Below are positions 1 to 22,300 of a DNA stretch of 24,000 nucleotides, piece by piece (within the stretch, counting starts at the first letter, position 1; the number at the start of each line of letters is the position of its first letter). This DNA is from Carnobacterium sp. 17-4. GTDB lineage: Bacteria; Bacillota; Bacilli; Lactobacillales; Carnobacteriaceae. The notes beneath the pieces are model-generated. The model did no database searches, was not told the DNA's origin, and worked only from the letters and a program-made list of their open reading frames with translations. A program made the position numbers and the translations under genes. Location of the stretch: assembly GCF_000195575.1 (NCBI RefSeq), contig NC_015391.1:1576363-1600362 (forward strand). Direction: 5' to 3'.

Positions 1-288
1 TCTATTTTTATTTTTTGACATTTCCAATAAGGTTTGGAGTACATCCTCCTTAATCTTTTTTTTATTCATATAACTTCTAGTAAAAACTACTTTCTGATCT
101 TTAGTAAATATGTCGGCAAATTCTTTAACTGTAATAAATAAATCAGCGTCTTTACCTATAGCAGCATTTGAATCGATTGATTCCACTTCAATTTCTATAC
201 CATTATCTTTCGCTAACTCTTCAACTTTCATTTTCAGCATTAAACTACTGCCAATACCATTTCCACATACAGTAACAACTTTTAACAT
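1..288 (-). CDS. PTS sugar transporter subunit EIIB (Lac/ascorbate-galactitol type); the 3' end runs off the window
   Basis: Absent from the ORF track because there is no stop codon in the window. The minus-strand ATG at 288-286 follows an AAGGAGGAAG RBS, 17 nt after the upstream gene's stop. All 96 codons down to position 1 are open: MLKVVTVCGNGIGSSLMLKMKVEELAKDNGIEIEVESIDSNAAIGKDADLFITVKEF... The N-terminal strand-Cys-Gly-rich loop (VCGNGIGSS) is the EIIB phospho-cysteine hallmark. Confidence 0.8.
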   Translation of the reverse strand, partial: MLKVVTVCGNGIGSSLMLKMKVEELAKDNGIEIEVESIDSNAAIGKDADLFITVKEFADIFTKDQKVVFTRSYMNKKKIKEDVLQTLLEMSKNKNR

Positions 289-305: not shown

Positions 306-2355
306 TTATCTCTCTAAAATTTCGTTTATTTTATTAAATAACTCTCTAGCATTTGTTGCATCAATTAATTCAGTAATATTTTCTTCATCTTCTAGGATTT
401 TAGATAATTGCTTTAAAGCTTTTAAATGACCTGTACTGTCCACAGCAGCAAGTATAAATATTAGTTTAACTTCTTTATCTTCATCGTATTCACTATCCAT
501 ATTGAAATCTACTGGTTGGTCAAGATGCAGCAAACTTACACCTAATTTTGCTACACCTTCTTCAGGTCTAGCATGAGGAACAGCCACTTTCGGAGCTAAA
601 ACAATGTATGCTCCCATCTTTTTTACCATGCTGATCATTGCATTAATATAATTTCCATTAATGTATCCTTCTTTTAAAAGAGGGTCAGCAGCTATTGAAA
701 TAGCCTCTTGCCATTCCATTTTTTTATTAGTGAATTTTATTAAGTCTTCCTGTAATAACTCTGTCAAGTTTTTACCTCCTTCATAATTTCTATCAGTTTC
801 ATAGAGAATGTTAGAAATACTTTCATAAAGTTCTTTTCTATTTTCAATTGTTGCATGTTGTTCGATTGCTTTTATTAATTTTTGTATATCTAAATTTTGG
901 ATTCCAACTTCAATATCAAAATTTTGGCTTACTTCAGTCTTCAGGATCTCTTGTTCTACTTTATTTAAAATTGGCTTCGTTAAAAAAAGTTGCTTCTCTG
1001 TTTGAAAATATGTTGTAGAAAAAACCATATCGTAATCTTCTATACGTAATGCTTTTGCTTCCTCCAAACTATGCACACTACTAAATACAATCGAAGGAAA
1101 TAACTCTTTCAATTGTGTTCTCATAATTAAAGAAGAACTTATTCCGTTTGGACAAATAGACAACCCTTTATAAGTTCTTTTTTCTTCCCTATTTAGAGAC
1201 AAAAAGCCACCAAAATGTACTGTAAAGTAAGCTACTTCGTCTTCTGGTATTGCTTTACCAGTAAGTTCTGCTAAAGGTTCTAATCCTTTCTCAACTAAGT
1301 AATATAATTCATTGTATTCTTCCATTATTTGAGCTGTATATGGGTTTTTAGAAACAATATCGAATTTTATTCTGAAGTAAGCTGGCACTAAGTGTTCAAA
1401 AAGATTATCAAATAATTCTTTTGGATTTTCAAAGACGATACCCGTAATAGCTTGAACTCTTGCAATAATATTTTTTGTAACTTCTTTAAAAAATTCTTCT
1501 TCGTAAACCTTTTCATTTCCCTGAAGAGCACTCAACAACCTTATTGTTATATATATTTTTTCTTTTTCACAATTTTTATAAAAAATATCTTTTACAATAA
1601 AATGACTCATTTTGTATAAAGGGTGTTGTTCTAAATACTTTATATCTTTATCATCAAAATTAAGCTTAAATGAATTTTTTCTTTTCTGTAAAAAATCAAA
1701 AAAGTAAATAACTTCTTTTATTCTATCGTAGGTAAAGGTCACATTGTATTCTTTCGAAAGCTTTATAATCACTTTATTAATTATTTCTTTATTAGACGTG
1801 TATTCCCAAGATTCAAAAATATAGTTAATTAACCATTCTCCAATGGTTAAAGATAATATTTTTCCTATCGAATAAGAAACTAAGCTTCTTATATCATATT
1901 CTTCTCCTTTCAATTCGTAGCCACTATTTCTACTATAAATCAAATCAATTTTGTATCTTTCACAAATTTCTTTCACTTTCCTTAGATCCAATAACACTGA
2001 GTTTTTACTTAACTGAAGGAATTCTTGGTAATGATTATTGGAAATAATATCCGTTTTTATAAACGTGTATAAAATAATCATGTATACCCTTTCATCTTGT
2101 AAAATTAAATCTTTCTTTCGTAGTTTCTTCTTTTCAGCTTTCCATGCTACTTTTGATTCTTCAGAAAAAATAACTTTTTCATCTTCTAAAACTATTTCTG
2201 GAATTTTCATCATTATAAATTCAGAGTTAATTTTATTAAGCTCCTGCCAAAATTTTTTTTTTAGTAATTTGAAGAATACCTGAAATATTTGATACAGACC
2301 GTCCATCATTTTCCATCAAAGAATGAATAAAAAAAACTGACTCATTATTTAACAT
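306..2355 (-). CDS. PRD-domain PTS-controlled transcriptional regulator (MtlR/LicR/BglG family: HTH, PRD1, PRD2, EIIB-Gat-like, EIIA-Mtl-like), interrupted by a 1-nt frameshift in an A10 tract; possibly a pseudogene
   Basis: The 667-aa ORF (306-2309) carries PRD-like segments (AYFTVHFGG). It also has an EIIB-like Cys loop (GLSICPNGISSSLIM) and a C-terminal EIIA-2 domain with the PHARPE histidine motif. The likely real start is the ATG at 2355, behind AAAGGAGAAGAGT, giving MLNNESVFFIHSLMENDGRSVSNISGILQITKKK (HTH-like). That frame leaves the main frame at T10/A10 (2253-2262). The span 2355 to 306 is 2050 nt, which is 3n+1. Confidence 0.8.
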
Positions 2356-2557: not shown

Positions 2558-2869
2558 CGTCCAATGTATATGAACTTAGAGAACCTTTAATTTTTTTTGG
2601 ATACTAAATTAATTAATTGAGCTTTTTTGATCATAGAAGAAGGACCTATTGATTATTTAGATTTTAAATATACAGCCATCGAACATATGGTAAAAAAATA
2701 TGTTCAGCAATTGCTAGAAATAAATGATGTATTTCTGAGCTTGGCAAATACAATAGCTATAGTCGTGCCTAAAAATGTGTTTGCTACTGGTCATGTTTTA
2801 ATATGCGAGACTACATCAGAAAAAGCTGCTCTGTCTCCTAAACAATTAGTAAATCATTATTTTTCATAA
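2558..2869 (+). pseudogene. Decayed C-terminal remnant of an amidase-signature-like gene, paralog of the CDS at 11123-12169
   Basis: The ORF at 2627-2869 (LIIEEGPIDYLDF..AIVVPKNVFATGHVLICETTSEK..LVNHYFS) aligns by eye with the C-terminus of the 348-aa protein (LISEEGPVDYHGF..AIVVPKKEFATGYVLICESTTEK..LITHYFT). The same frame continues upstream to about 2558 (RPMYMNLENL*FFLDTKLIN*AFL versus HPVIYGPRNPLITFLKAHLTSCDFL), with in-frame stops at 2588-2590 and 2618-2620. No N-terminal catalytic half is present. Confidence 0.7.
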
Positions 2870-2972: not shown

Positions 2973-3378
2973 TTAGTGTTCAAATACATTTAAATCCGCT
3001 TTTAAATAATCAATTGCTCTTTTCAATCTTTCTAATCCATCTATTACCTTTTCTTTGGAGCACCCTATATTCATTCTCAGAAAATCTGGGCCGCCATAAA
3101 TCGACCCATCCATAATGGCAACTCCACCTATGTTAACTAAGGCTTGCTGAATCTCCTCCATTTTAAAAGGGAATTCACTTATGTCTAGCCAAGCTAAAAA
3201 TGTTGATTCTGGAATAGTGAACTTAATCTCCGGAATTTTTTGTTTCAAGTAATCAAACGTAAAATTCATTTTTCAGAGATATACACATTCAATTCATTAA
3301 CGCATAAGATCCTATCAACCCAGAAGTATTAAAGGTTTTACTGGTTGAGGTACAAATAGCAACATTCTTTAATCCCTC
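2973..3378 (-). pseudogene. Remnant of a PLP-dependent aminotransferase class I/II gene (PatB/MalY-type cystathionine beta-lyase) with the 5' part missing and an internal deletion
   Basis: The 98-aa ORF 2973-3269 matches the C-terminus of PatB/MalY-type enzymes (TFLAWLDISEF...FLRMNIGCSKEKVIDGLERLKRAI). Just upstream in another frame, about 3290-3375 reads GLKNVAICTSTSKTFNTSGLIGSYALMN*, the SxSKTFN PLP-lysine motif. About 100 aa between the two pieces and the whole N-terminal part are missing. Confidence 0.7.
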
Positions 3379-3402
3379 TCTTTATCCCATAGATAAACTT
3401 AT

Positions 3403-3444
3403 AAAACCATACACCTCTCACTACAATAAGAGTTGTATGGTTTT
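3403..3444 (-). terminator. Rho-independent terminator-like hairpin downstream of yhfW
   Basis: AAAACCATACA (3403-3413) and TGTATGGTTTT (3434-3444) are perfect 11-nt inverted repeats starting 9 nt after the stop at 3453. On the minus-strand RNA the 3' arm ends in UUUU followed by AU-rich sequence. Confidence 0.55.
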
Positions 3445-3452
3445 CCATCAAA

Positions 3453-4664
3453 TTATCTTAATTTCCCTAAAAATGATTCGCCATGTTGTGGCTTCTTAAC
3501 GCCAAAATACTCTGCTGCTGTAGCGGCAACATCTGACATCGTTTCTCTTTCTCCTATTTCTCTTCCTTCAAGTCCTTTACGGTAAATCAGCAGTGGAACT
3601 CGTTCTCTAGTATGTTGACTATGTCCAATAGTTGGATCATTTCCGTGATCAGCCATAACTATTAAAAGATCTTCTTCATCTAACCGTTTCATTACCTCAC
3701 CAATATTTGTATCGCTTACTTCCAAACGATCAGCATAACGATTAACGTCTTCTCCGTGCCCTGCTAAATCAGTTTCTTGTACGTTCAAACAGATAAAACC
3801 ATTGTCCATCTCGCTTATCTCTTGCAATGAGGAATTGAACAATTGCTGTGTATCGACACCAGGATAGAGGTGAGTACTTGAAGTCTGAATGATATCCGCT
3901 GCTTTACCGATCAATGCCACTGGAATGTTTTGATGATTCAAAATCGTTGGAATTTGTACCTCAGGGTTTATCCCGTATCCCAAATGAATAACTTGATACC
4001 CTTGATCGTATACGCCGGACTCCGGAGCATCCACACCAGCAAATTTATTTTGTTTCACTTTTCTGGCTTTCAATAAATCATTCAACACAATATGTTCTCC
4101 ACCAAATACTATTACACGTGATACTTTTACCACTTCACGGATAGCTCTGCCTACCCGTTTGACTTCTTCAAAAGGCATAATATCAAGGCAAGCTGATACA
4201 TTATATACTTGCCCTAAATCTGTCTCTAAATTGTCTCCAACAGTTGCACATTCGTTGATGACTAAGATTTTAGGTTCAGAATTTTTTCCTTCGCGCCGAA
4301 CAGAATAGCCTTTTTTTACCAATTGTTGTTCTACTTCATCAATTACTTCATTAAAAGGCATATTAAAAGGAATCGGAGGGGTTGTGCCCATAATTTCCTG
4401 ATGCCCTAGAAAAGAATCCGCACCTTGATGAGCTAAATTAGAAGTTCCCCAATTAGCTTTTTTTGATTTTTTCAGTTTTTCTGTTTCTTTACCAATGGCA
4501 TTCATTAAACCTAATCTAACTAAATTTTTTATTTGAATGTCTGGTTTCCTTTCAATAATATGATAGGCCGTGTTACTTCCCACATCTTCTGGACGAACTT
4601 TGGATACATCATTCATATACCCTACTCCAAAGCTATCTAGTACGATGACGATAAATTTACCCAT
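3453..4664 (-). CDS. yhfW: YhfW-like phosphopentomutase-family metalloenzyme (alkaline-phosphatase superfamily)
   Basis: 403 aa. The N-terminus MGKFIVIVLDSFGVGYM is the DeoB/metalloenzyme metal-binding start, and the C-terminal part has MADHGNDPTIGHSQHTRERVPLL. The RBS GAGAGGGTGA overlaps the end of yhfX (4-nt gap). Position within a yhf-type cluster supports the call. Confidence 0.85.
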   Translation of the reverse strand: MGKFIVIVLDSFGVGYMNDVSKVRPEDVGSNTAYHIIERKPDIQIKNLVRLGLMNAIGKETEKLKKSKKANWGTSNLAHQGADSFLGHQEIMGTTPPIPFNMPFNEVIDEVEQQLVKKGYSVRREGKNSEPKILVINECATVGDNLETDLGQVYNVSACLDIMPFEEVKRVGRAIREVVKVSRVIVFGGEHIVLNDLLKARKVKQNKFAGVDAPESGVYDQGYQVIHLGYGINPEVQIPTILNHQNIPVALIGKAADIIQTSSTHLYPGVDTQQLFNSSLQEISEMDNGFICLNVQETDLAGHGEDVNRYADRLEVSDTNIGEVMKRLDEEDLLIVMADHGNDPTIGHSQHTRERVPLLIYRKGLEGREIGERETMSDVAATAAEYFGVKKPQHGESFLGKLR

Positions 4665-4668
4665 TTTT

Positions 4669-5826
4669 TCACCCTCTCAAATAGTTGCCTTGACTATCGT
4701 ATATACCTTCTATTGTTGGTTTGCCTTCTTGTATGCCACTCACTAAAGCAACTTCACTTCTCGTCACAAAAATTTGTGTCCGAAAGGCCATAATAGCTGT
4801 AGCACCAATGGGTTCTGTTTCATCAATTTCTAAATAATAATCAATATTCTCATCTGAAAGAGCATTTATATGAGCTTCTGTTTGTTTTCCATGATTATCA
4901 ATTAAAACATTTTTCAGGTGCCCTCTTCTGTAAAATCCACCGCCAAAAAGGTAACCTTTTCTTTTAAAGTTATGGGAAACTTCACTTACATAAACCATTG
5001 CTGGTTTTTCAGCTAATTCTTTTTCAGCATGCATGGGTGTTGTACCTGTTAACGCATGTCCTGGCTCCCCCTGTGTGCCCCCTATTTTTTTGATGAATGG
5101 AAGTGTGTATACAGAAGTAGCTGAAGGGATATTCAATTCTTGGATAGTGATTCCTTCTTTTTCAAGTAATTTTTTAGCCGCTTTTACAGTTTCTGTATTA
5201 TGCGTCGGTTCCAATATTTCTTTTTCAGCATTATATAAAAAACATGGAAATGAAGTTACTCCTGAGATTTCAATATATTTTAATTCCTTGAACAAGCTGA
5301 TTAACGAAGGCAACTCTTTAAGTGTAAAGCCTCCGTATTGTCCAGGATAAAGTTCGTCTTCATCGCTTACTACTCTTAATAAAATCTTTTGCTTAATGCC
5401 TATTTCTTTTGCCAAACCATTAATAGCTTGTAATTTTTCTAGTGAATAAACGGTTAAATATTTTGAGCCATACATCATGATATCTTTCAGTAACATCTGT
5501 GGAATTTGCACGAGGTGGCCTACATTTCCCAAAGGAATATTATTTTCCATCATAATCTTTGCTTCTCGAAAATCCACTACCACAGCATTCTTTATTCCTA
5601 ATTCAACCAACATTTTTGCAATAGTCGGATTTCTTCCAATTTGTTTAAGCATAAAAAATAGTTCAATATCATTTTTCTTCGCTGTCTCTATTAATTTCTT
5701 GGCATTTTCACGGATAATATCTAAATCAAGCACATACGTATCTGGAAGAATTTTTTCTGATTGATGCAGCGTTATGGCTTCTTGGATAAGTTTAGGATTT
5801 CTTTTTTTGACAACATCCATAAACAT
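4669..5826 (-). CDS. yhfX: YhfX-like fold-type III PLP protein (alanine racemase N-terminal domain family)
   Basis: 385 aa. MFMDVVKKRNPKLIQEAITLHQSEKILPDTYVLDLD... closely parallels my recollection of E. coli YhfX (MFLDVVRRHNPALI...). The candidate PLP lysine sits in FMLKQIGRNP. The conserved tail reads FRTQIFVTRSEVALVSGI. RBS AGGGGGGA. Confidence 0.85.
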   Translation of the reverse strand: MFMDVVKKRNPKLIQEAITLHQSEKILPDTYVLDLDIIRENAKKLIETAKKNDIELFFMLKQIGRNPTIAKMLVELGIKNAVVVDFREAKIMMENNIPLGNVGHLVQIPQMLLKDIMMYGSKYLTVYSLEKLQAINGLAKEIGIKQKILLRVVSDEDELYPGQYGGFTLKELPSLISLFKELKYIEISGVTSFPCFLYNAEKEILEPTHNTETVKAAKKLLEKEGITIQELNIPSATSVYTLPFIKKIGGTQGEPGHALTGTTPMHAEKELAEKPAMVYVSEVSHNFKRKGYLFGGGFYRRGHLKNVLIDNHGKQTEAHINALSDENIDYYLEIDETEPIGATAIMAFRTQIFVTRSEVALVSGIQEGKPTIEGIYDSQGNYLRG

Positions 5827-5848
5827 GCTTTTCCCCCCTAAACTTCTA

Positions 5849-6196
5849 TTAATGATTCAATAATGTTACCAAATGCAAATGAAAATATTCTGCCTCATTT
5901 TCTCTAAAAGAAACTGGGGCTAATGCTGCAATTTTATTCCAGTAGTTTAAAGCTTCGTCATATTTTTGATCCGCTTTTATTTGTTCATTTATCATTTGAT
6001 CTACCGAATTAATTGTTTCTTCTGTATATTGTCGTGCAGTTGCCATCACTAAATGAGTAATAAAAGTATCTGCTTCATCTTCATTACTAATGATATTTTG
6101 AGCTTTCATAAATTTCAACACTTCTTGCGCATAATCATATACTGAATCATTGATTACATTATTCTCTCTTAAAATCGTTAGTTTTTCTTGAATCAT
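5849..6196 (-). CDS. yhfY: YhfY-like stand-alone PRD-domain protein
   Basis: 115 aa with the two PRD-type histidine contexts (FITHLVMATAR and EYFHLHLVTL) and no DNA- or RNA-binding domain. RBS AAGGAGAG sits 9 nt upstream. The gene lies between yhfZ and yhfX, as in E. coli. Confidence 0.8.
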   Translation of the reverse strand: MIQEKLTILRENNVINDSVYDYAQEVLKFMKAQNIISNEDEADTFITHLVMATARQYTEETINSVDQMINEQIKADQKYDEALNYWNKIAALAPVSFRENEAEYFHLHLVTLLNH

Positions 6197-6213
6197 CTTA
6201 AAGATCTCTCCTT

Positions 6214-7137
6214 TTAATAACGAGGTGTCATTAACCCATTTTTTATTTTATTTTGAGTTTCCAACATTTTTTCTACTTCTATGTTCTTTCTACAAATAGA
6301 TTCAATGACTAAGTTATCTTTTTGGCAAATAATGACAGCTTCGTTCATAGCTTTGTGTTGTTCTTTCAAAGAAATGAATTGAACATTTAAATCTTCATAG
6401 TTTTTATCTATAATTTCATCATAGTTCCAAATACCGGCATCAATCTGATTTTCCCGTAAGGCATAAATCAACTGGTTAGCTGGAACCTCTACCAGCTCTA
6501 CATTTTTTCCTTCTATATGTTCATTTGTCAACATAAGGTGATCTAGTGAATCTCTGTCAATGCCAACTCTCATACCATCAATAATGGACTCATGTTTCTT
6601 TGAAGCCAATAACAAAACATGTTCTGAAAGGTATGATTTTGGTCCAAACCTTAAAGCTATATCAATAGTTCCATTTGTCCTTATCTCATGTTCGGCAGCA
6701 AATCTAGAAACTACTGCCATATCATATAATCCCTTTTTAACAGCATCTATCCGATCTTCTGAACCACGAATATACACCATATTTAGCTTAATATCGCTTT
6801 CTTTAAAAGCTAAATAAAGACCTGTAGCAAAGCCTTCATAAAGTTTTGAGTAAGGTAATGGCATGGTAGCTGTTAATTGATCTTTAACAACATATGATTG
6901 AAGAATTTGATAATCCATTTTTTTGATATACGTTCCTAAATGCCCTTTACTTTCAGTTTCAATTGCACTTATTTCCTTTAAAAATGAAAGTGCATTTTGT
7001 ACGGTTCCTCTAGACAATTCATATTTTTCTTGCAGTTCACTGATATTGGGCATTCTGTCATCTTTTGATAGCAAAAATAATTCTGCTGCTACTTTCTCAA
7101 TAGCTAATCCTTTTTTTTGATAAAATGTTTCTTTCAT
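6214..7137 (-). CDS. yhfZ: YhfZ-like transcriptional regulator (GntR-type winged HTH plus a YhfZ C-terminal, periplasmic-binding-protein-like domain)
   Basis: 307 aa. The N-terminal wHTH reads MPNISELQEKYELSRGTVQNALSFLKE and is followed by a roughly 230-aa ligand-binding-like domain. RBS GAAAGGA. Cluster context supports the call. Confidence 0.8.
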   Translation of the reverse strand: MKETFYQKKGLAIEKVAAELFLLSKDDRMPNISELQEKYELSRGTVQNALSFLKEISAIETESKGHLGTYIKKMDYQILQSYVVKDQLTATMPLPYSKLYEGFATGLYLAFKESDIKLNMVYIRGSEDRIDAVKKGLYDMAVVSRFAAEHEIRTNGTIDIALRFGPKSYLSEHVLLLASKKHESIIDGMRVGIDRDSLDHLMLTNEHIEGKNVELVEVPANQLIYALRENQIDAGIWNYDEIIDKNYEDLNVQFISLKEQHKAMNEAVIICQKDNLVIESICRKNIEVEKMLETQNKIKNGLMTPRY

Positions 7138-7166
7138 AATGCTATGATCCTTTCAATTTCAAACTA

Positions 7167-8273
7167 TTACCTGCTTTGTTTAGATACAGCTATAATCGAT
7201 TCATGTAAAATCCTTATGATGGTTTCACTACCTGCTCGCATTGGGTTGATTCGAATCATGGTTCTTTCTGCATCTGGATTGGCTGCTCTAAAAGTTCCAG
7301 ATAAACGATAAAACATTGGTACAAACTCGTATTGTGATTCTGCTCCAACTGGATTAGGTGCTGCTCCCAGTTTTTCAGCTTCTTCTAGGACAGCACTTGC
7401 TATGGGTTCATCTAACTCAACTAAAATCACTTTCGATTGAGCATTAGCAATGTAGGCTTGTTTTACGCCCTTTACTTCTCCAGCATTCAAGCTATTTTTT
7501 ACTTCTTCAAGTACTTTAGCTGAGAGTGCTAGCGCTACTGGCGCATAAATCATTCCCCTCAAAACGTCGATTGCTTCATGACCTTGCACTTGCAATCCAC
7601 CAGAATAATTTTCTGCTTTCAATTTTTCAATAGCTTTTTCATTTCCAACGATACACCCAATTCCTTCAGGACCCAACAACTTAAAAGTCGAGAAACACGC
7701 TAAAGTAGCTCCCATTTGTGAGCCTATTTCCGGCGTTTTTAACACCGCGTAATTATCATCTGTTACAATTGGTGTATTTGGCAAGTAATTTTGGATACAC
7801 TGTATCACTTCTTTTGCATCATAAGAATCATCCGGTTTTTGGCGCGTAATCTGGATCAACACCCCATCAATAGCTTGATTTTTTAATGTGACTTGCAATT
7901 TTTCTAAATCATTAAAATCCGTTGCAATTGTTTTTAATCCCATAGTATCAATAGATACTTTTGTAGTCGGATAAACGGGAGCATCATGTACTAACAATGT
8001 ATCTCCAATATTCATTGTGGCATGTAAAGCCATTCGGATCGCCATAGTTCCTGCTCCGCGAACCAGCATCGTTGCTTCAGCATTAAAGTAATTCTCTAGA
8101 ACTTTTTCAACTTTGTTCGTTGTTCTAGGCTGATTTAAGCCAGGAATCACTCCTAAATCGCCACGAGTTAAAATATCGCTTCCTCTAAAGACTTTAGTGA
8201 TCTCATCAATTAAAGAAAATTGTTTTTTTGTAGCTTCTTCTATGTTTAAACTAGTAAGAGGATACGTCTTCAT
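7167..8273 (-). CDS. yhfS: YhfS-like fold-type I PLP-dependent enzyme
   Basis: 368 aa. MKTYPLTSLNIEEATKKQFSLIDE...LVHDAPVYPTT...DDNYAVLK...FSTFKLLGPEGIG...IANAQSKV...FYRLSGTFRAANP tracks my recollection of E. coli YhfS nearly motif for motif. The candidate PLP lysine is in STFKLLG. Confidence 0.85.
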   Translation of the reverse strand: MKTYPLTSLNIEEATKKQFSLIDEITKVFRGSDILTRGDLGVIPGLNQPRTTNKVEKVLENYFNAEATMLVRGAGTMAIRMALHATMNIGDTLLVHDAPVYPTTKVSIDTMGLKTIATDFNDLEKLQVTLKNQAIDGVLIQITRQKPDDSYDAKEVIQCIQNYLPNTPIVTDDNYAVLKTPEIGSQMGATLACFSTFKLLGPEGIGCIVGNEKAIEKLKAENYSGGLQVQGHEAIDVLRGMIYAPVALALSAKVLEEVKNSLNAGEVKGVKQAYIANAQSKVILVELDEPIASAVLEEAEKLGAAPNPVGAESQYEFVPMFYRLSGTFRAANPDAERTMIRINPMRAGSETIIRILHESIIAVSKQSR

Positions 8274-8299
8274 TTTTTCCCACCTTTTTTGTTAGTGCT

Positions 8300-9175
8300 T
8301 TATAAATAAAATTGTTGTGGATTTTTGATCAACATCTTCTCAACAAATAATTCTGAAATACCACCTTTTAAAATCATTGGGACAAAAGTATCCAATAAAT
8401 AAGAGTAACCAATGCCATTTTTATATTTCAGATTGGATTTCCTCGTTATATCCATTGATAAGAAAATTTTATCTGTAAATCCAGCTGCTTCTATCGCTAA
8501 TAGCATTTCCAGTCGTTTCTCATCTGGCATATAGTTTTCTTTTCCCACGGTGTCAAACTCAACATACACGCCTTCTTTCAGTAAAGACAACACGTAGTTA
8601 GAATCACCCGTTAAATCAACATGACCGATCACAACCTTTTTTAAATCAACTTTGTTCTCTTTAAAGAATTGAACTTGTTCTTTTCCATGAGTTCCTAGAG
8701 TTGTATGCGTCGTAATAGGAACTCCTGTCTGATGGTGGGCAATAACAGCTGCTTTAAAAACCTTATGTTCTCGTTCAGTCATTTGATTTTTACTTGTTGC
8801 AATTTCGCCTATTAACTCAGCTCGGCTATCAGTCCCATTTATTCCAACCGTAATATCTTGTATCATAACCTCTGCCATTTCTTCTACCGTATGTTCATCT
8901 ACAAAAGACGGAAGAAATTTATCTTGATACCATCCGGTTGACTGGATGATATTTATACCAGATAATTCACCAACTTTTTTCACATAATCTGGATTGCGAT
9001 TCATTCCCATCACAGTCACATCAATGATATTTCGAACGCCTTTTTTGTACAGTTCTTTATACTCTGCAACTGTCTCGTCAAAGCAATTCAAATTTGTATC
9101 TTCCGTTTTTTTTAAAGAAGATAAGTCTATTGTTGTATGTTCATGAGCATATGTTATTCCTTCTTTTAAAGGCAT
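8300..9175 (-). CDS. php: Phosphotriesterase homology protein (Php/YhfV), amidohydrolase superfamily
   Basis: 291 aa. All the binuclear-metal ligand contexts I recall from E. coli Php are visible: YAHEH, IGEIATS (a Glu at the bridging position), PITTHT, IGHVDL and LSMDITR. RBS GAGGAG. Confidence 0.9.
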   Translation of the reverse strand: MPLKEGITYAHEHTTIDLSSLKKTEDTNLNCFDETVAEYKELYKKGVRNIIDVTVMGMNRNPDYVKKVGELSGINIIQSTGWYQDKFLPSFVDEHTVEEMAEVMIQDITVGINGTDSRAELIGEIATSKNQMTEREHKVFKAAVIAHHQTGVPITTHTTLGTHGKEQVQFFKENKVDLKKVVIGHVDLTGDSNYVLSLLKEGVYVEFDTVGKENYMPDEKRLEMLLAIEAAGFTDKIFLSMDITRKSNLKYKNGIGYSYLLDTFVPMILKGGISELFVEKMLIKNPQQFYL

Positions 9176-9208
9176 GCCATCTCTCCTCTTTTTTCATTTA
9201 AAGATAAT

Positions 9209-9237
9209 GGTGCTAAACAAATAGATCATTTAGCACC
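9209..9237 (-). terminator. Intra-operon stem-loop between yhfT and php (possible attenuator or processing/stability element)
   Basis: GGTGCTAAA (9209-9217) and TTTAGCACC (9229-9237) form a perfect 9-bp stem with an 11-nt loop. It lies 14 nt after the yhfT stop, in the only sizeable gap (75 nt) of the operon. The sequence after it is only moderately U-rich. Confidence 0.25.
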
Positions 9238-9250
9238 TCACTTTTATTCA

Positions 9251-10552
9251 TTATCCAGCAACTGGCGCCCACAGGCCTAGTACATATAAAATATTCACAA
9301 CAATTCCTAATACAATAGCAGCTACAGGTCCAACAGCCATATTAACCAATGGTTTTTTAGCTGTTTGATTTAATAAGTAAGCCCCAATCAGCCAGAAATA
9401 ACCAATTCCTGGTGCAATTTGCTCACTTGCCAACGCCCCACCAATTAGTAAAGCAATTTCTAACACACGATTCATCGAAGTACGGATATGTTCTCCCATT
9501 TCTCTAACTCCCGGGAAACGATCTAATCCTTTAGCAGCACCATTCAATAACATAATTTCAAGAAACATTACAATGGCTCCAGCAATGAAAGCAAATATAG
9601 GATGACCTTGTAATAAAATACCAATAACAAAAACAAAAGTAGTTCCAGATGGACTGTATACTCCAGTTACAATAGCGGTAGAAAATACTAATGGAATGAA
9701 ACCAATTCCACGAGCAAATGCAGCTAATGCTGCTTCACCAAATTTACCTTCACTCATCAAGTTCAGTGAAATGGGGTCACCTGCAATAATTACTAAACTT
9801 GTTGCAGCAGCCACTAACCCTCCAGTAAGCGATAATAAAAGAGCATTTTTTTTGATTCTTGTCACACGCTCTACAAAAATACTAACAAGATTTTGATTGT
9901 CTGTTCCTTCGCCTTTTACACGAACAGCAAAGAATACCATTAAGACCATTCCAACCAATAAGGCCATACCTTCAGCACTTAATGTAAAAGTAGTTCCGCT
10001 TGCTAATGTAATTATTCCAAATCGCTTAACCAAGACCAAAGCTAATGTACTAAATCCTAAAGTAAGTGCTCCTTTTGTAAACCCATGTTGATAGGCAATA
10101 GCTAGTGCTGGGAAAACAGCAAAACCTATCACGATCGGTGTTCCAACTGCTCCTAAAGCATCTAAGAAGTTAACTGGCATTAAGCCAAATAAATCCACTA
10201 CAACTTGTAACCCAATCGTAATTCCAATTCCCCACAAGGCTCCAATGATTCCAGCAATGATTGTTCCTTTTTTTCCTTCTGGAGCCCAAGTACCAATAAT
10301 ATCTGTCATTAAAAGAATACTATGAACTAAAATAACGCTCGCACCAAGTGAAACTGGGATTCCAAAACCAATAACCAACCCAAAACTAACAGCAAAACTT
10401 GTTGCGGCTAATTCCTTTTTTCCAATTACTCCCTCTAAATACTCTGGCATAACCGGACGTAACCCATCATTAAAAACAGCAATTCCTTTATTGGCCATCA
10501 TGGCTGCTAGTGCTCCCAATGCCCCTACAACTACTAATTCAATAATATCCAC
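9251..10552 (-). CDS. yhfT: YhfT-like polytopic inner-membrane transporter
   Basis: 433 aa, very hydrophobic and Gly/Ala/Ile-rich, with many predicted TM segments. GTG start at 10552 behind AAGGAGGAG. Adjacent to the yhfU homolog, as in E. coli. Confidence 0.8.
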   Translation of the reverse strand: MDIIELVVVGALGALAAMMANKGIAVFNDGLRPVMPEYLEGVIGKKELAATSFAVSFGLVIGFGIPVSLGASVILVHSILLMTDIIGTWAPEGKKGTIIAGIIGALWGIGITIGLQVVVDLFGLMPVNFLDALGAVGTPIVIGFAVFPALAIAYQHGFTKGALTLGFSTLALVLVKRFGIITLASGTTFTLSAEGMALLVGMVLMVFFAVRVKGEGTDNQNLVSIFVERVTRIKKNALLLSLTGGLVAAATSLVIIAGDPISLNLMSEGKFGEAALAAFARGIGFIPLVFSTAIVTGVYSPSGTTFVFVIGILLQGHPIFAFIAGAIVMFLEIMLLNGAAKGLDRFPGVREMGEHIRTSMNRVLEIALLIGGALASEQIAPGIGYFWLIGAYLLNQTAKKPLVNMAVGPVAAIVLGIVVNILYVLGLWAPVAG

Positions 10553-10575
10553 TTTTCTTTCTCCTCCTTAAACTT

Positions 10576-10941
10576 TTAATTTATTTTTTTTAGTTCATCC
10601 ATGATAATTGGAATAACAGTCTCTTTATGTTGAGCTGTAAATCCAAATGCTTTTTTGCCGTTATTAACATTCTCTCTGATTTTTTCATCAGACATAAGAT
10701 TGCTTGGCATAGATACGGTAACGGTTGCATCTCTTCCAACTAAAGCAATTGCCATTGCAAGAGCTCCTCCACCTCCCGTGTTACAAGCACCAAAGTAATA
10801 GTCAGCTAACCCATTTTTCAATGCCATCGCTGCTTCTAAATCACTTTTAGTTTCTATCGTAAATTTTCCTTCTCCATATTTTTCTACTAGTGCCGCTACT
10901 TCTTTTTTATCAATTTGTCCTCCGATAACAATCCTTTTCAT
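10576..10941 (-). CDS. yhfU: YhfU-like small soluble protein (DUF2620 family)
   Basis: The preferred start is the ATG at 10941 (MKRIVIGGQ...) behind GGGGAG, rather than the TTG at 10959 used by the ORF track. 121 aa with a conserved glycine-rich Cys loop, YYFGACNTGGGGALAMAIALVG. Confidence 0.8.
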   Translation of the reverse strand: MKRIVIGGQIDKKEVAALVEKYGEGKFTIETKSDLEAAMALKNGLADYYFGACNTGGGGALAMAIALVGRDATVTVSMPSNLMSDEKIRENVNNGKKAFGFTAQHKETVIPIIMDELKKIN

Positions 10942-10962
10942 TGTTCTCTCCCCTTTCAATTC

Positions 10963-10988
10963 CCAATATACATTTTTTTGTATATTGG
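10963..10988. promoter_or_regulatory. Perfect 10-bp inverted repeat in the yhf operon leader (candidate operator or 5' stem-loop)
   Basis: CCAATATACA (10963-10972), a TTTTTT spacer, then TGTATATTGG (10979-10988). It lies between the predicted promoter and the yhfU RBS. The arms contain the TGTATA/TATACA half-sites typical of GntR-family operators. Confidence 0.4.
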
Positions 10989-10991
10989 TAA

Positions 10992-11005
10992 AGAAAACGT
11001 TCTCT
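10992..11005. promoter_or_regulatory. cre-like (CcpA) site overlapping the predicted transcription start of the yhf operon
   Basis: AGAAAACGTTCTCT matches the palindromic core of the cre consensus TGWNANCGNTNWCA at the central positions (G.A.ACGTT.TC). It mismatches at both terminal bases. Confidence 0.3.
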
Positions 11006-12169: not shown

Positions 12170-12177
12170 AGATAATT

Positions 12178-12217
12178 AAACAAAACTCCAGATGTTTCCC
12201 CATCTGGAGTTTTGTTT
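12178..12217. terminator. Strong bidirectional rho-independent terminator
   Basis: AAACAAAACTCCAGATG (12178-12194), loop TTTCCC, then CATCTGGAGTTTTGTTT (12201-12217): a perfect 17-bp stem with U-rich 3' arms on both strands. It begins 9 nt after the amidase stop. It is also the first strong terminator downstream of rmlD and the ywqE remnant on the minus strand. Confidence 0.85.
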
Positions 12218-12352
12218 ATAGTTACATCCCTTATAGGCTACATACTAATAAATAAAAAGTGAATTTTTAACCATTCGAAACTGCGTGTGGCAGCTAAAGA
12301 TTCCTTTTCTAATTCTATAATGTCCTACAAATTAATTAAATCTATAATTTTT

Positions 12353-12910
12353 TTTAAAACAGCACTAAATTTGCTTCAATGAGTTGTTTACTCAACTTCT
12401 GTATATTCTTTCCAAAACCACCTGTATAACTAGCAGCAGTGAGTTGAGCCAAAACTCACTTTTCAACAAATGGCAACAATACGTCTGGATCTTTCAGCAC
12501 TTCTCGGTTGCGCTCTGGATAAACAATTATTGGTGTAATACCTTATTTTTGTAATTCAAAGAATAGTGATTCTGTATACGCAGGTATAGCAGGTGTTGGA
12601 AATTCAATTAAAACATATTGATTGCCTTCAACAATAAATTGTACCTTATCTTCATCTAGTTCTTCAAATAATTCACCATTAATTCGGACCTTTTGACCAG
12701 GACAAATAGTTAACGGAATGCCTCATTCATCTAACTCTTTCTGCAATTCATCTACTAGAATTAAAATACCTTTTTTTCATTATCCTAAAGTCCATTCTTA
12801 TAATGTGGTGTAGTCAAAATATGAGTAATACCTTCTGAAACAGCTTCTCGCGCCATATTTTTTGCTCCGTCATCAATACCAGGCAAAATATGACAGTGTA
12901 AATCAATCAT
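12353..12910 (-). pseudogene. ywqE: ywqE/cpsB-type PHP-family protein-tyrosine phosphatase pseudogene (frameshift, several in-frame stops, 3' truncation)
   Basis: ATG at 12910 behind GAGGGA gives MIDLHCHILPGIDDGAKNMAREAVSEGITHILTTPHYKNGL, then TAG (12787-12785). After a frame change it continues VDELQKELDE*GIPLTICPGQKVRINGE...YVLIEFP...LQK*GITPIIVYPERNREV...VEK*VLAQLTAASYTGGFGKNIQKLSKQLIEANLVLF*. This is collinear with my recollection of B. subtilis YwqE, but it stops before the ASDAHN motif. Confidence 0.8.
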
Positions 12911-13034
12911 TTTTTATCCCTCAATCTATTTGGTACTTCCTTTATAGAATATAATTACAGTACTATCTAGTTGAAAAATTATTGTATAGATAAAATAATA
13001 TAATGGTTTTGAAATTCAAAATGATTATACTTCA

Positions 13035-13871
13035 TTACTTCATTACATTCATAAATTCCTCTAGCGCTTCTTGCCAAGTCGGGATATTAAACCCTGTAGA
13101 TTTAGCTTTAGATAAATCCAGCACTGAATGTTTTGGCCGATACGCTTTTTGTGGATACTCTTCAGAAGTAACGGGTGCAACTTCTACCGATGTATCTTTT
13201 AGAATTTCTGTTGCAAATTCATACCAAGAGCATTCCCCTTCATTTGACAAGTGATAAAGTCCATACTCTTGATGAGTAGCTGTCAAATGTAGCATAAACT
13301 CTGCAAGAGTTCGTGTCCAGGTCGGTCGTCCTACTTGATCGCTGACAACTGTTAAACGAGAATGTGTTTCAGCTAAATGTTGCATGGTAAACACGAAATT
13401 TTTTCCAAACTCTCCGAAAACCCAAGATGTACGAATGATATAGGCTTTAGTTGATATTTCTTGAACAATTTTTTCGCCTTCAAGTTTTGCACGGCCATAC
13501 TCGTTTTTAGGATTAGGTAGCGAATCTACTCTGTATTCGTCTTGGTTGGTTCCATCAAAAACATAATCCGTACTTATGTAAACTAATTCAGCGCCTACTT
13601 CTTCAGCAGTTTCTGCTATATTTCTTGTTCCTATGATATTTACTAACTGATTAAATTCTTTCCCTTCCTCTTCAGCAGCATCCACTGCTGTGTAGGCCGC
13701 ACAATGATAAATCACCGACGGTTTTAATGCCGATACAAACTGATGAACAGCGGACTTGTCTGCAACGTCTAATTCTTTCGAACCAGTTGCTACATAAGTT
13801 AGGTCTTTCTCATCCAATACTTTTTTCAACTCTGTTCCCAGTTGCCCATTTGCTCCTGTAATTAAGATCAT
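13035..13871 (-). CDS. rmlD: dTDP-4-dehydrorhamnose reductase
   Basis: 278 aa. MILITGANGQLG Rossmann start, YISTDYVFDG and YGRAKLEGE (the YxxxK motif). Last gene of an rmlACBD block. Confidence 0.9.
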   Translation of the reverse strand: MILITGANGQLGTELKKVLDEKDLTYVATGSKELDVADKSAVHQFVSALKPSVIYHCAAYTAVDAAEEEGKEFNQLVNIIGTRNIAETAEEVGAELVYISTDYVFDGTNQDEYRVDSLPNPKNEYGRAKLEGEKIVQEISTKAYIIRTSWVFGEFGKNFVFTMQHLAETHSRLTVVSDQVGRPTWTRTLAEFMLHLTATHQEYGLYHLSNEGECSWYEFATEILKDTSVEVAPVTSEEYPQKAYRPKHSVLDLSKAKSTGFNIPTWQEALEEFMNVMK

Positions 13872-13891
13872 TTGATCTCCTCCTCTATATG

Positions 13892-13921
13892 AAAAAAGAT
13901 AGGAAATCTCCTATCTTTTTT
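13892..13921 (-). terminator. Terminator-like hairpin inside the rml block, between rmlB and rmlD
   Basis: AAAAAAGATAGGA (13892-13904), loop AATC, then TCCTATCTTTTTT (13909-13921). On the minus-strand RNA the stem ends in U6. It starts 12 nt after the rmlB stop and sits directly before the rmlD RBS GAGGAGGAG. Confidence 0.4.
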
Positions 13922-13933
13922 AACTATATTTTA

Positions 13934-15545
<1,612 letters not shown>

Positions 15546-15561
15546 TTTATTTAACTCCTTT

Positions 15562-16434
15562 CTATCTATCTTCTTCTGCAATTCGTAACAGATATTGACC
15601 ATATCCATTCTTTTTCAATGGTTGTGCCAGTTCAATTAACTGTTCATGAGATATGTATCCCATACGATAAGCAATTTCCTCTAGACAAGCTACCTTAAGA
15701 TTTTGTCGCTTTTCAATAGTTTCAATAAAAGTTCCTGCTTCTAATAATGATTCATGAGTTCCTGTGTCTAGCCATGCATAGCCACGACCCATTACTTCAA
15801 CATCCAATTCACCAGCTTCTAAATAAGCTTTATTGACATCTGTAATCTCAAGTTCACCTCTATGAGAGGGTTGGATAGTTTTAGCAATCTCAACAACTTT
15901 GTTATCATAGAAATATAAACCTGTTACAGCATAATTACTTTTAGCTTTTTCTGGCTTTTCTTCAATTGATAATGCTTTCATATGCTCATCAAATTCAACC
16001 ACTCCAAAGCGTTCAGGATCATTCACATGATATCCGAAGACTGTTGCCCCTTTTTCTTTCTCAGCAGCTCGTTGTAATAATTTAGATAACCCACCACCAT
16101 AGTAAATATTATCCCCTAGAATCAAACAAACTGAATCTTCTCCAATAAAATCTTCACCTATAATAAAAGCTTCTGCTAACCCATTCGGTTGGTCTTGTAC
16201 TTTAAATTCTAAATTTATTCCTAATTCTGAACCATTTCCAAATAATTGTTTAAAACGTGGTGTATCATCTGGTGTTGAAATAATTAAAATATCTTTAATA
16301 CCTGCTAACATTAATGTGGACATAGGATAATAAATCATCGGTTTATCGTAAATCGGCATTAATTGTTTTGATGTTGCTTTCGTTAAAGGATACAAGCGTG
16401 TTCCGCTTCCTCCTGCTAAAATGATTCCTCTCAT
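15562..16434 (-). CDS. rmlA: Glucose-1-phosphate thymidylyltransferase
   Basis: [18 protein letters not shown]...; the ATG at 16434 follows GGGGGAG. The track's start at 16449 lacks an RBS. Confidence 0.92.
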
Positions 16435-16462
16435 AATTGACTCCCCCATGTAAAAAGATAAT

Positions 16463-17884
16463 TTATACCTTTAATAATTTTTTTATAAAATTATACGTAT
16501 ACATAATTTCTTTTCTTTTTATCAATAAGTATATAAAATAGAACAAGATATAAATAAAAATACCTATAATTGATTTTATATACCATGACGTGATGATAAA
16601 AATAATACTCATAAAAATTTCTAAATATATATCGCTAACTACATTAACTTTTATTATCTTTGATAATAAAAGCTCTGCAACTATGCTTCTAAATGCCAGT
16701 AAAACTCCAATTGAAAGCATAGCAACTGTCAAATTTTCTAATATGAGTGTCGAAATCATTGTTATTATGATACTTACGCAAACTGTGTAAATATTTACTT
16801 TTAAAATTATACGTTCTTTTCTTATTGTTTTTAAATACGTATTAATTAATAAAGCAGTTTTACTTTCAAACAAAATCATTGGGAAGATTAATGCCATATA
16901 ATTTAAACTTTCAGCATATTCAGGTAACCATAATGATAAAACATATTTTAATGGATAGTACATAATTAAAACACCAATTAGAGGAACTATTAATAAAGTT
17001 CTCATTAAGCTATAAAGATCTTTAAGTTTTTCGGTATTAGTTCGACGCAGCATTGGATATATAACTAAACTAGTTGCATTTACAAATACCATCAATAAGT
17101 TTGATACACTTAATGTGAGTGAAATTTTGCCAAAAATAGCTACGCTCCATACTCTTTCAATACCAAATCTTACTATTCCTAAAATTAGGCTGCTAGCTAT
17201 GTTGGCAAACATCAAACTTATACCAACTCTTATATTTTCTACAGTTTCTATTAAATCAAAATAAAAATCCTCAAATTTTCCAAAAACTATATCTCTACAC
17301 AAATACATAGCATAGAGCAAGGAAACACTTTTTCCAACTAAATCTGCAATAATTAATAATTTAAAGTCTCTATTTCCGGTTAACAACAAGATACTAATAA
17401 GTATTACATATACAAGCCGATCTAAAATAGTACTTATTGAATAAGTTTTAATTAGATTAGTTGCTTGTAATATATTGTGTAAAAAAGATCTCACATTAAC
17501 AATTAGTAAAAAAATCGATAACATTGTAAATATAAATATATCATTTGGTGTCTCCATATATTTATGTATTACTAACAATAATATTAATGAAACAATAAAT
17601 TGAAAGATAAAAAAACTCCAAAATTGAGAATAAAACTTTCTTTTATCCAATTTCTTATAATTTTCTCCACCATATCTTAAATAAATCCCATCATTCCAAC
17701 CTAAATGCAGTAAAACAATGTATGAGCCATAAAACAAATAAATTTGCCAGTAACCATATTCTTCCACCCCTATTAATTTAGGTATAATAAGTACAACAAA
17801 GGTAGATATTAATAAAGAAATCAGATTGGAAGAGATTGTGTATGACATATTTTTTAGTAGACTCAGAAATTTTTTACTTTGCAT
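16463..17884 (-). CDS. wzx: Wzx-type polysaccharide flippase (MOP superfamily)
   Basis: 473 aa, polytopic, extremely AT-rich and Ile/Leu/Phe/Tyr-rich. Its position next to wzy and the glycosyltransferases supports the call. Confidence 0.75.
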
Positions 17885-17988
17885 TTTATCCTCTATTCTT
17901 TGCAGAATTTTAAATAATTAAAATACTTACAATTTTTATTCAACACTTATAAAAATGACATTCTAAATGATGACATAATTTTATTAAG

Positions 17989-19155: not shown

Positions 19156-19304
19156 ACATATTACACCACTTTATATTTTTTTGACTTTCAAACTTTTCCG
19201 TACCTCATTTTAATAATACAAGTACTAATTTTTGAGTCAGAGTTAGTAACTATTCAGGTACATTATCCTAGGTAAGAGTTTGGCGATTTTTTCAACTTTT
19301 TTAA

Positions 19305-20435: not shown

Positions 20436-20456
20436 GACGTTGTATCTACTCCAATC

Positions 20457-21107: not shown

Positions 21108-21111
21108 GTAC

Positions 21112-22281: not shown

Positions 22282-22300
22282 AATACTGATATTCCTCCAT

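Follow-up and report, generated by a model that had tools for sequence, protein, structure and literature searches.

What is a set of eight genes for, when it is kept together in at least four bacterial phyla and the full-text literature searched assigns it neither a substrate nor a pathway? The question is raised by a 24,000-nucleotide (nt) stretch of the Carnobacterium sp. 17-4 chromosome (contig NC_015391.1, positions 1,576,363 to 1,600,362), the whole of which we call the window. Between positions 3453 and 10959, its minus strand carries eight co-directional open reading frames (ORFs) in the order U-T-php-S-Z-Y-X-W, which belong to the same families as the orphan php-yhfSTUWXYZ cluster of Escherichia coli K-12. 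The structure of E. coli Php dates from 1998, and YhfS, YhfX and YhfZ also have solved structures. The sole experimental datum that we found in the literature searched concerns php: when overexpressed, the E. coli gene lets a pdxB deletion mutant grow, that is, it acts as a multicopy suppressor. The by-pass involved is uncharacterised, and 2-oxo-3-hydroxy-4-phosphobutanoate has been suggested as the compound that it forms (PMC3010111). Both that paper and PMC7954711 still describe the protein as one "of unknown function", and a review of 2021 still gives it as "unknown function". The orphan status that a preliminary description of this locus, made from the sequence alone, had given the cluster thus stands within that literature.

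To address this question, we compared the eight families with known profiles and structures and followed their arrangement from genome to genome. The Carnobacterium locus is an intact Gram-positive copy, and an ordinary orthologue, of the orphan E. coli cluster. The gene set is conserved and its order is not, which supports a functional unit. With confidence somewhat better than even, we read the region as a substrate-inducible operon, orthologous to E. coli yhfZYXW-php-yhfUTS, for the uptake and breakdown of an amino-bearing small molecule that is probably phosphorylated at some stage and linked as a lactone, ester or amide.

An intact copy of the cluster

From U to W, the genes are separated by gaps of 23, 75, 26, 29, 17, 22 and 4 nt. 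The layout first described for the locus, eight co-directional genes spaced by 4-75 nt with one promoter-like region upstream and one terminator, is borne out by the ORF listing, by a promoter-like site with an embedded palindrome before U and by a terminator-like hairpin after W. The mechanically called yhfU ORF begins at TTG 10959, and the ATG at 10941 gives a protein of 121 amino acids (aa). This ATG is probably the true start, because it is preceded by AAAGGGGAG with a GGGGAG ribosome-binding site and because the homologues are 120-122 aa long.

Seven of the eight proteins are placed directly by profile searches (Pfam, NCBIfam). Pfam recognises DUF2620 in U (3e-44), YhfT in T (1e-168), PTE in Php (4e-80), YhfS-like_C in S (2e-44) and YhfX-like_C (5e-36) together with Ala_racemase_N in X, while Z and W are named by NCBIfam models as given below. 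BLASTP aligns the same seven over their full length with the E. coli K-12 proteins, at identities of 39% (U), 34% (T), 45% (Php), 55% (S), 31% (Z), 44% (X) and 48% (W). YhfY joins them by profile comparison only. The eight family calls made at the outset thus hold, that of YhfY at the level of profiles. Three of the family names (YhfT, YhfX and YhfZ) are already attached to these proteins in public annotation. The closest relatives are congeneric: YhfT is 96% identical to a Carnobacterium mobile YhfT family protein and YhfY is 93% identical to a protein of Carnobacterium sp. AT7. All the catalytic residues that we checked in the cluster enzymes are conserved.

One gene set, several gene orders

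A single scan of species-representative genomes with a YhfS alignment gave 57 loci, in which ORFs were called and assigned to the eight families by BLASTP (the counts of gene orders include the window itself). Three orders dominate: Z-Y-X-W-php-U-T-S in 14 loci, U-T-php-S-Z-Y-X-W in 13 and Z-Y-U-T-php-S-X-W in 11. The cluster genes are co-directional in all 57 loci, minor variants included; U adjoins T in every order, and Z and Y stay together in the three main ones. The taxa span at least four phyla and comprise Carnobacteriaceae, Enterococcus, Lactobacillus, Bacillaceae, Clostridia, Erysipelotrichales, Coriobacteriia, Fusobacteria and Enterobacteriaceae. The order seen in the window is in fact the standard arrangement of Carnobacteriaceae and Enterococcus and is not peculiar to it, and the genes that flank the cluster are unrelated between lineages. 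Because the same gene set recurs in permuted orders amid unrelated flanks, it appears to be selected as a functional unit. The preliminary description had noted that the order is permuted relative to E. coli (U-T-php-S-Z-Y-X-W here, Z-Y-X-W-php-U-T-S there), which is correct, and had argued from a conserved set in an unconserved order to a functional unit, an argument that the three major orders across 57 loci strongly reinforce.

The minor variants are of several kinds. Xenorhabdus lacks W, Heyndrickxia has W and X swapped and Holdemania has Y moved. In Solobacterium-type loci, T precedes U, Z is missing and the core is followed by duplicates: a second php and a second yhfS-like gene stand after W (12328-14654 of locus L029, and likewise in L030 and L058). 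The second yhfS-like gene encodes a longer protein of 451 aa that also matches Cys/Met-metabolism models of pyridoxal 5'-phosphate (PLP) enzymes. Plasmids carry the cluster too: tblastn located it on large replicons, non-mobilizable ones, in Cetobacterium and Bacillus thuringiensis. Decay is also seen: in Thermoanaerobacter thermocopriae (L017), both yhfX and the amidase-like gene described below are fragmented, in one E. coli strain only part of T remains, together with S, and another E. coli strain and a Shigella flexneri strain carry degraded copies (L026, L052, L053).

Clustering of the flanking ORFs gave only three recurrent families, namely an amidase-like protein, a PBP4B-like protein and a few DeoR regulators or aminotransferases. 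Thus, when neighbourhoods are compared for genes that co-vary with the cluster, as had been proposed, the amidase gene adjacent to it in the window does so, in about 20 loci. A link to the fructoselysine (frl) operon, which lies beside the cluster in E. coli K-12, was considered and rejected: this adjacency is local to E. coli, because other Enterobacteriaceae loci carry cysG-nirC-nirD-nirB after yhfS.

Table 1. Features of the php-yhfSTUWXYZ locus in the window, in order of decreasing position
Feature	Coordinates	Strand	Remarks
Compact amidase-signature-like protein, 348 aa	11123..12169	+	Divergent from U; Pfam Amidase (PF01425)
Promoter-like site	10965..10992	-	-35 TTTACC, 16-nt spacer, -10 TATATT; consensus scan 9/12
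Candidate YhfZ operator	10963..10988	-	Perfect 10-bp inverted repeat CCAATATACA-aaaaaa-TGTATATTGG
yhfU-like (DUF2620)	10576..10941	-	ORF extendable to TTG 10959; likely start ATG 10941
yhfT-like polytopic membrane protein, presumed permease	9251..10552	-	Pfam YhfT
Intra-operon hairpin	9209..9237	-	Directly 3' of yhfT stop; -18.5 kcal/mol, z = -3.9
php, phosphotriesterase-family binuclear metallohydrolase	8300..9175	-	Pfam PTE
yhfS-like fold-type I PLP enzyme	7167..8273	-	BLASTP and PDB match
yhfZ-like regulator, GntR-type winged helix and periplasmic-binding-protein-like effector domain	6214..7137	-	NCBIfam YhfZ_full
yhfY-like stand-alone PRD protein	5849..6196	-	Profile level only
yhfX-like fold-type III PLP enzyme	4669..5826	-	BLASTP and PDB match
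yhfW-like phosphopentomutase-family metalloenzyme	3453..4664	-	NCBIfam PRK12383
Terminator-like hairpin and U-rich tail	3392..3449	-	Directly after yhfW stop; -21.9 kcal/mol, z = -4.98

Enzymes with intact active sites

Four of the proteins can be compared with enzymes of known chemistry. In Php, the residues H11, H13, E124, H157, H185 and D242 correspond to H12, H14, E125, H158, H186 and D243 of the E. coli protein, so that the metal-ligand contexts described as intact are so at all six positions, and at least 95% of the 52 family members compared retain these ligands. Against NCBIfam PRK09875, the protein scores 327.4 bits, under the equivalog cut-off of 486; by the NCBI cut-off rule it is therefore classed as a Php-type relative and not as an equivalog. 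Beyond PRK09875, the NCBIfam models that come next are those of the organophosphate hydrolase OPH (1.4e-21) and of a phospho-furanose lactonase (6.8e-20).

The two PLP enzymes are of different folds. YhfS matches the solved structure of E. coli YhfS (PDB 4J8L, 5e-123), and both its PLP lysine, K198, and D172 are invariant in 56/56 sequences; outside its own family, its closest solved relatives are methionine gamma-lyase, cystathionine gamma-synthase and cysteine desulfurase. YhfX matches the solved E. coli YhfX (PDB 4KBX, 8e-106), has an invariant lysine, K61, across the aligned sequences and finds its next solved relatives in alanine racemase and D-threonine aldolase.

YhfW fits NCBIfam NF009049 / PRK12383 very well (589.8 bits for a cut-off of 254, 2.7e-177). 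Seven residues (D10, D83, D299, H303, D339, H340 and H351) are invariant in 48/48 sequences. The nucleophile position, 84, is Ser in the window, and the family is divided there between Thr (33 sequences) and Ser (15 sequences).

YhfU and YhfT, the least understood pair

The AlphaFold2 model of YhfU is of high confidence (predicted local distance difference test score, pLDDT, 96) and has an alpha/beta fold whose top Foldseek matches in the PDB are structures of ribose-5-phosphate isomerase B (RpiB; probability 1.0, template modelling score, TM, 0.65-0.73, E 3e-4). Flavodoxin, B12-binding and receiver domains follow at lower rank, and the EIIB proteins of the phosphotransferase system (PTS) are not among the top 50 structural matches. 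The family has a C-x-T/S-G-x-G motif, in which C59, T/S61, G62 and G64 are each invariant in 51/51 sequences. An hhalign comparison sets its Cys and Thr on the catalytic C66 and T68 of RpiB, in an alignment that is insignificant when taken alone (probability 1.4%); the Pfam LacAB_rpiB model does not match YhfU.

The YhfT model, all-helical, has a pLDDT of 78. Foldseek returned no fold match for it among solved structures (best E 0.02, TM <0.2), and hence neither an EIIC nor any other solved transporter. We looked at YhfU and YhfT as an EIIB/EIIC pair and rejected this pairing, as Pfam finds no PTS domain in either protein and the fold searches gave no EIIB among the top 50 matches of YhfU and no EIIC for YhfT.

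Directly after yhfT lies an intra-operon hairpin (Table 1). Hairpins of different sequence occupy the same place in 4/4 other Carnobacteriaceae loci examined (L002 9021-9099, L005 9016-9103, L042 7741-7808 and L051 4633-4703). Such an element may act as a partial terminator or as an mRNA-stability element that separates U-T from the enzyme genes.

Two predicted regulators and a candidate operator

YhfZ is recognised by the NCBIfam model NF041241, YhfZ_full (400.7 bits, cut-off 260), carries the Pfam domains HTH_41 and YhfZ_C and matches the solved YhfZ C-terminal domain (PDB 2OZZ, 3e-84). Its next relatives are GntR, FadR and CodY helix-turn-helix domains on the one side and amino-acid-binding proteins on the other, although the resemblance of the effector domain to the latter is weak.

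The 115-aa YhfY is more elusive. Taken by itself, it has no match in Pfam, NCBIfam or the PDB, nor in BLASTP against E. coli YhfY. Its homologues come from Carnobacterium, Marinilactibacillus, Alkalibacterium and Isobaculum, and an alignment of 14 of them with the window protein (15 sequences) changes the picture: Pfam PRD (PF00874) is matched by 14/15 members, with a best E of 1.6e-6, and hhalign aligns the family profile with E. coli YhfY over 107 columns (95% probability, E 2.9e-8). H48 and R55 are invariant in 45/45 sequences. At H108, 27 of the 45 have His and 18 have Asn, His being the residue of the Gram-positive proteins and Asn that of the enterobacterial ones. By these profiles, the PRD call for YhfY is supported, although it could not be verified from the window sequence alone.

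Where would such regulators act? Promoter-like sites are not enriched in the region overall, and the one before U is in itself a positional match only. It is strengthened because it overlaps a conserved palindrome, which sits between the -35 and -10 elements of this site, the only well-placed one upstream of U. In its strict form, T[AT]TACA-N6-TGTA[AT]A, the motif has 11 copies in the 1.04 Mb of loci that were retrieved, and 11/11 stand no more than 212 nt upstream of the gene that opens the cluster. In a relaxed form, it is found upstream of the first cluster gene in 21/45 loci, with a density of 2.47 per kb there compared with 0.047 per kb elsewhere, an enrichment of about 50-fold. In fact, the motif follows the start of the operon and not a particular gene: it precedes U in Carnobacteriaceae, Enterococcus and Holdemania and Z in Lactobacillus, Clostridia and Olsenella, and two copies are often present where the locus has a divergent amidase gene. 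The Solobacterium-type loci, L029, L030 and L058, have no yhfZ; the contig of L030 starts inside the cluster, so the motif check covered L029 and L058, and the motif was found in neither. The simplest reading is that the palindrome is likely a candidate operator of YhfZ, acting as a repressor.

At the other end of the operon, the hairpin after yhfW folds better than its shuffled versions (0/200 shuffles fold as well). A riboswitch or other known RNA in the leader was rejected, as Rfam gave no match at the gathering score anywhere in the window.

Accessory hydrolases

The divergent gene upstream of U encodes an amidase-like protein, which barely reaches the Pfam Amidase model (27.2 bits for a cut-off of 27) and does so over model positions 127-167, about 40 residues; the full-length domain of about 445 positions is not matched. 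Homologues that share 27-82% identity with it are encoded within the cluster or next to it in the non-enterobacterial loci counted above, and none was found in Enterobacteriaceae loci. Their genes are found at four different places, namely upstream of U and divergent from it, in the T-php interval, in the X-S interval, or downstream of W. Across 15/15 sequences, K48, S98 and S122 are invariant, and the spacing of 24 residues between the two serines is that of a typical amidase-signature triad. A family profile run against the PDB finds GatA, FAAH, malonamidase and peptide amidase through the signature core only. When 1.84 billion representative proteins were searched exhaustively, the relatives amounted to 164 clusters at 50% identity, and those that are full-length measure 300-390 aa. 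Because relatives are few, the proteins short and the match limited to the signature core, this family looks like a small, compact and distinct branch of the amidase-signature superfamily that travels with the cluster.

Two observations concern the surroundings of this gene. An 18-bp hairpin lies just after it (12177-12218) and is likely a bidirectional terminator between it and the rml/polysaccharide region. On the far side of the cluster, an 80-aa ORF (2627-2869, plus strand) matches residues 245-337 of this protein at 46% identity and appears to be a gene remnant.

A second hydrolase recurs elsewhere. In five loci (Guptibacillus, Caldanaerobacter, Holdemania), a gene for a PBP4B-like serine hydrolase of the beta-lactamase family directly follows W. 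The Guptibacillus and Holdemania loci have no amidase gene; Caldanaerobacter has both. As the amidase and the PBP4B-like enzyme would both cleave amide-type bonds, their presence suggests that the Gram-positive versions of the cluster take a conjugated form of the substrate.

A working model and its rivals

How might these parts work together? We envision that YhfZ binds the promoter-overlapping palindrome and represses the operon until an effector fills its binding-protein-like domain. YhfY, a PRD protein beside YhfZ with an invariant histidine, would adjust this control, most simply through phosphorylation by HPr, the general protein of the PTS. Once the operon is expressed, YhfT would bring the compound in, and the compact amidase, or the PBP4B-like hydrolase in other genera, would free the core molecule from its amide-linked partner. 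Php would then open a lactone or ester, YhfW would move a phosphate, and YhfU, with its RpiB-like fold and its Cys/Thr motif, would isomerise a sugar-phosphate-like intermediate. YhfX could act at the amino-bearing carbon, either by stereochemical inversion or by C-C cleavage, and YhfS would finally remove the amino group by PLP-dependent elimination to yield a keto acid for central metabolism. The comparison shows the gene set, the intact catalytic residues, the conserved co-localisation and the conserved palindrome close to the promoter; in this scheme, we infer the catabolic direction, the order of the steps, the role of YhfY as a PTS-responsive modulator and the class of the substrate. Hints to the chemistry come from the relatives of Php, YhfS and YhfX, from the metal ligands and nucleophile of YhfW, from the fold of YhfU, from the effector domain of YhfZ and from the by-pass suggested for php. 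The substrate class proposed in the preliminary description, a phosphorylated amino compound such as an amino-sugar or lactonised amino-acid derivative, would fit the enzyme families.

More tentatively, and with confidence well short of even, we would go one step further and propose an undescribed catabolic route for an amide-, ester- or lactone-linked amino compound, with a new uptake module made of YhfT and the RpiB-like YhfU and a new regulator pair made of YhfZ, with its TATACA-N6-TGTATA operator, and YhfY. Possible sources of such a compound are D-amino-acid-containing, peptidoglycan-derived or glycation-derived conjugates.

Several points weigh against an inducible uptake and breakdown operon. 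Chief among them is the absence of a kinase or phosphorylase from the cluster, which leaves the source of the phosphate for YhfW unexplained. The literature searched gives no substrate, inducer or phenotype for the cluster, and whatever goes beyond family membership is our interpretation. What makes YhfT a putative transporter is its polytopic membrane topology, the link of YhfU to RpiB is structural, with an insignificant profile comparison (the probability of 1.4% given above), and co-transcription of the eight genes is suggested by their spacing. The operator motif was not found in Enterobacteriaceae loci and in a few Gram-positive ones in the 45-locus scan. Finally, on the B. thuringiensis plasmid, a reduced cluster adjoins two ATP-grasp genes, which fits biosynthesis as well.

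Other readings of the cluster are conceivable. It could serve metabolite repair, salvage or detoxification by reopening, re-phosphorylating, racemising and deaminating a damaged or toxic compound of endogenous or environmental origin. An antimetabolite would be one example, and an amino-acid phosphate that has been lactonised, racemised or glycated another. The only recorded experimental effect of Php, promiscuous or underground in kind, would agree with this, as would the lack of a kinase and the patchy occurrence of a cluster that has become degraded in some strains of E. coli and Shigella (L026, L052, L053) and in Thermoanaerobacter (L017). However, it is typical of inducible catabolism that a permease-like gene is dedicated to the pathway and that a repressor of the substrate type has an operator to itself, and eight or nine genes are many for a repair system. 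We consider repair unlikely.

The missing kinase would be explained if YhfU and YhfT formed a new PTS-like group translocator that delivers an already phosphorylated substrate, with YhfU as a Cys-phosphorylated EIIB-like subunit, YhfT as an EIIC-like one and the PRD protein YhfY as the sensor of phosphorylation state. The constant adjacency of U and T, the invariant Cys of YhfU at a strand-helix junction and the place of a PRD protein in the core set speak for such a system. The structural evidence does not: the best matches of YhfU are RpiB isomerases, with no EIIB in the top 50, the YhfT model resembles no solved EIIC or other transporter and Pfam sees no PTS domain in either protein. Moreover, Carnobacterium and Enterococcus avium do have PTS genes beside the cluster, and these belong to separate systems that are not homologous. 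A translocator of this type seems quite improbable to us.

Still less probable is a biosynthetic cluster that makes a small product derived from an amino acid or a sugar and exports it through YhfT. PLP enzymes and mutases are also common in biosynthesis, and the B. thuringiensis megaplasmid has the order Y-U-T-php-S-X followed by two ATP-grasp ligase genes and an MFS transporter gene. However, the ATP-grasp neighbours occur in this locus only, energy-consuming enzymes such as ligases or synthetases are missing from the core set, the accessories that recur (amidase, PBP4B-like) are hydrolases and the regulator is of the GntR-like repressor type with a promoter-overlapping operator. As for inherited synteny or the chance adjacency of unrelated genes without a shared function, it is effectively refuted, for the eight families have remained united across no fewer than three rearranged orders, in at least four phyla and between unrelated flanks.

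Surroundings of the cluster

On the side of W, the window ends in a PTS unit. A 667-aa regulator with PRD and EIIA domains (306-2309, minus strand) is accompanied by an EIIB gene that runs to the edge of the window (1-288; PTS_IIB, 1.3e-17). Carnobacterium antarcticum has an equivalent regulator and EIIB, followed by a 456-aa ORF that we take to be EIIC, and Enterococcus avium has a PRD-EIIA regulator and a Gat-type PTS after the cluster, whose EIIC is not homologous to the Carnobacterium one. We considered this unit (1-2309) as a part of the cluster and rejected it; it is treated as a separate system because of the non-homologous EIIC of E. avium and because other loci have no PTS genes.

Between yhfW and the PRD-EIIA regulator, the segment 2434-3402 is missing from the otherwise collinear C. 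antarcticum locus and holds two gene remnants. One is the amidase-like fragment mentioned above. The other (2973-3269, minus strand) is a class I/II aminotransferase reduced to a C-terminal piece of 98 aa; in a few other loci, e.g. L018, genes for aminotransferases that are intact stand close downstream of W.

Beyond the amidase-like gene, a region of about 800 bp has no long ORF. Within it, a 41-aa ORF (12785-12910, minus strand) matches the first 45 positions of CpsB/CapC only (2.2e-13) and is read as a truncated capsule tyrosine-phosphatase gene at the edge of a polysaccharide locus. From 13035 to 23515, there follow the dTDP-rhamnose genes rmlD, B, C and A, then genes for a flippase, glycosyltransferases, an acetyltransferase and a DUF1972 protein, along with a 388-aa ORF that has no Pfam match. 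The G+C content falls to 24-30% there, which suggests a variable surface-polysaccharide locus.

Significance

The value of the Carnobacterium copy lies in its comparative leads, namely the candidate operator, the accessory hydrolases and the YhfU fold. The conserved candidate operator provides a handle for YhfZ binding tests and for inducer screens. For Gram-positive bacteria, the accessory amidase and PBP4B-like proteins point toward a substrate with an amide linkage that is possibly related to D-amino acids. Structural leads now exist for YhfU and YhfT, the least understood pair: an RpiB-like fold for the former and, for the latter, a model that matches no solved fold. The families of the cluster occur in gut and food bacteria (Enterococcus, Carnobacterium, Escherichia, Citrobacter), and the pathway, if solved, would annotate about nine gene families.

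Comparison with known systems

Several of the proteins are offshoots of well-known families. Phospho-sugar lactonases of the phosphotriesterase family, reportedly described by the Raushel laboratory for Lmo2620/Bh0225 and for Mycoplasma enzymes, share with Php a TIM-barrel binuclear metal centre of the PTE type (NCBIfam NF045706). Unlike them, the Php-type proteins form a subfamily of their own (PRK09875), and the window protein scores 71 bits against the phospho-furanose lactonase model, for which the cut-off is 630.

YhfW stands in a similar relation to the phosphopentomutase DeoB. Both have an alkaline-phosphatase-superfamily core with a Thr/Ser nucleophile, and in an alignment with the Bacillus cereus enzyme (PDB 3M8W) every metal ligand is kept. 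In contrast, the middle cap domain of YhfW is divergent and aligns poorly, and the protein fits PRK12383 far better than the DeoB models, where it falls below the equivalog cut-offs (151.7 versus 341 bits for TIGR01696, 192.9 versus 256 bits for PRK05362). YhfW is thus probably a competent phosphotransfer enzyme, and the divergence of its cap leads us to expect a substrate different from that of DeoB.

The YhfU model superposes on the RpiB/LacAB fold, and its C-x-T/S-G-x-G motif aligns with C66-G-T68-G-x-G of RpiB. YhfU differs in being about 30 residues shorter, in being always encoded beside a membrane protein and in having no significant sequence profile similarity to that family. The amidase-like protein shares a Gly/Ser-rich core and the Lys-Ser-Ser residues with the amidase-signature enzymes GatA, FAAH, malonamidase E2 and peptide amidase. 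Those enzymes have about 410-640 aa, as against the 300-390 aa of the compact family, and about 45-100 residues can be aligned.

The closest known system is the E. coli K-12 cluster itself, yhfZ-yhfY-yhfX-yhfW-php-yhfU-yhfT-yhfS (b3383-b3376), which has the same eight families in the same co-directional arrangement at 31-55% identity (YhfY by profile only). The two copies share the sub-blocks Z-Y-X-W and U-T as well as the conserved catalytic residues; they differ in how the blocks are joined, [U-T][php][S][Z-Y-X-W] in the window versus [Z-Y-X-W][php][U-T][S] in E. coli. They also differ at the second PRD histidine of YhfY, H108, which is His in the window and Asn in the enterobacterial proteins. 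In addition, the Carnobacterium copy has a divergent amidase-like gene and a TATACA-N6-TGTATA palindrome at its promoter, neither of which was found in the Enterobacteriaceae loci.

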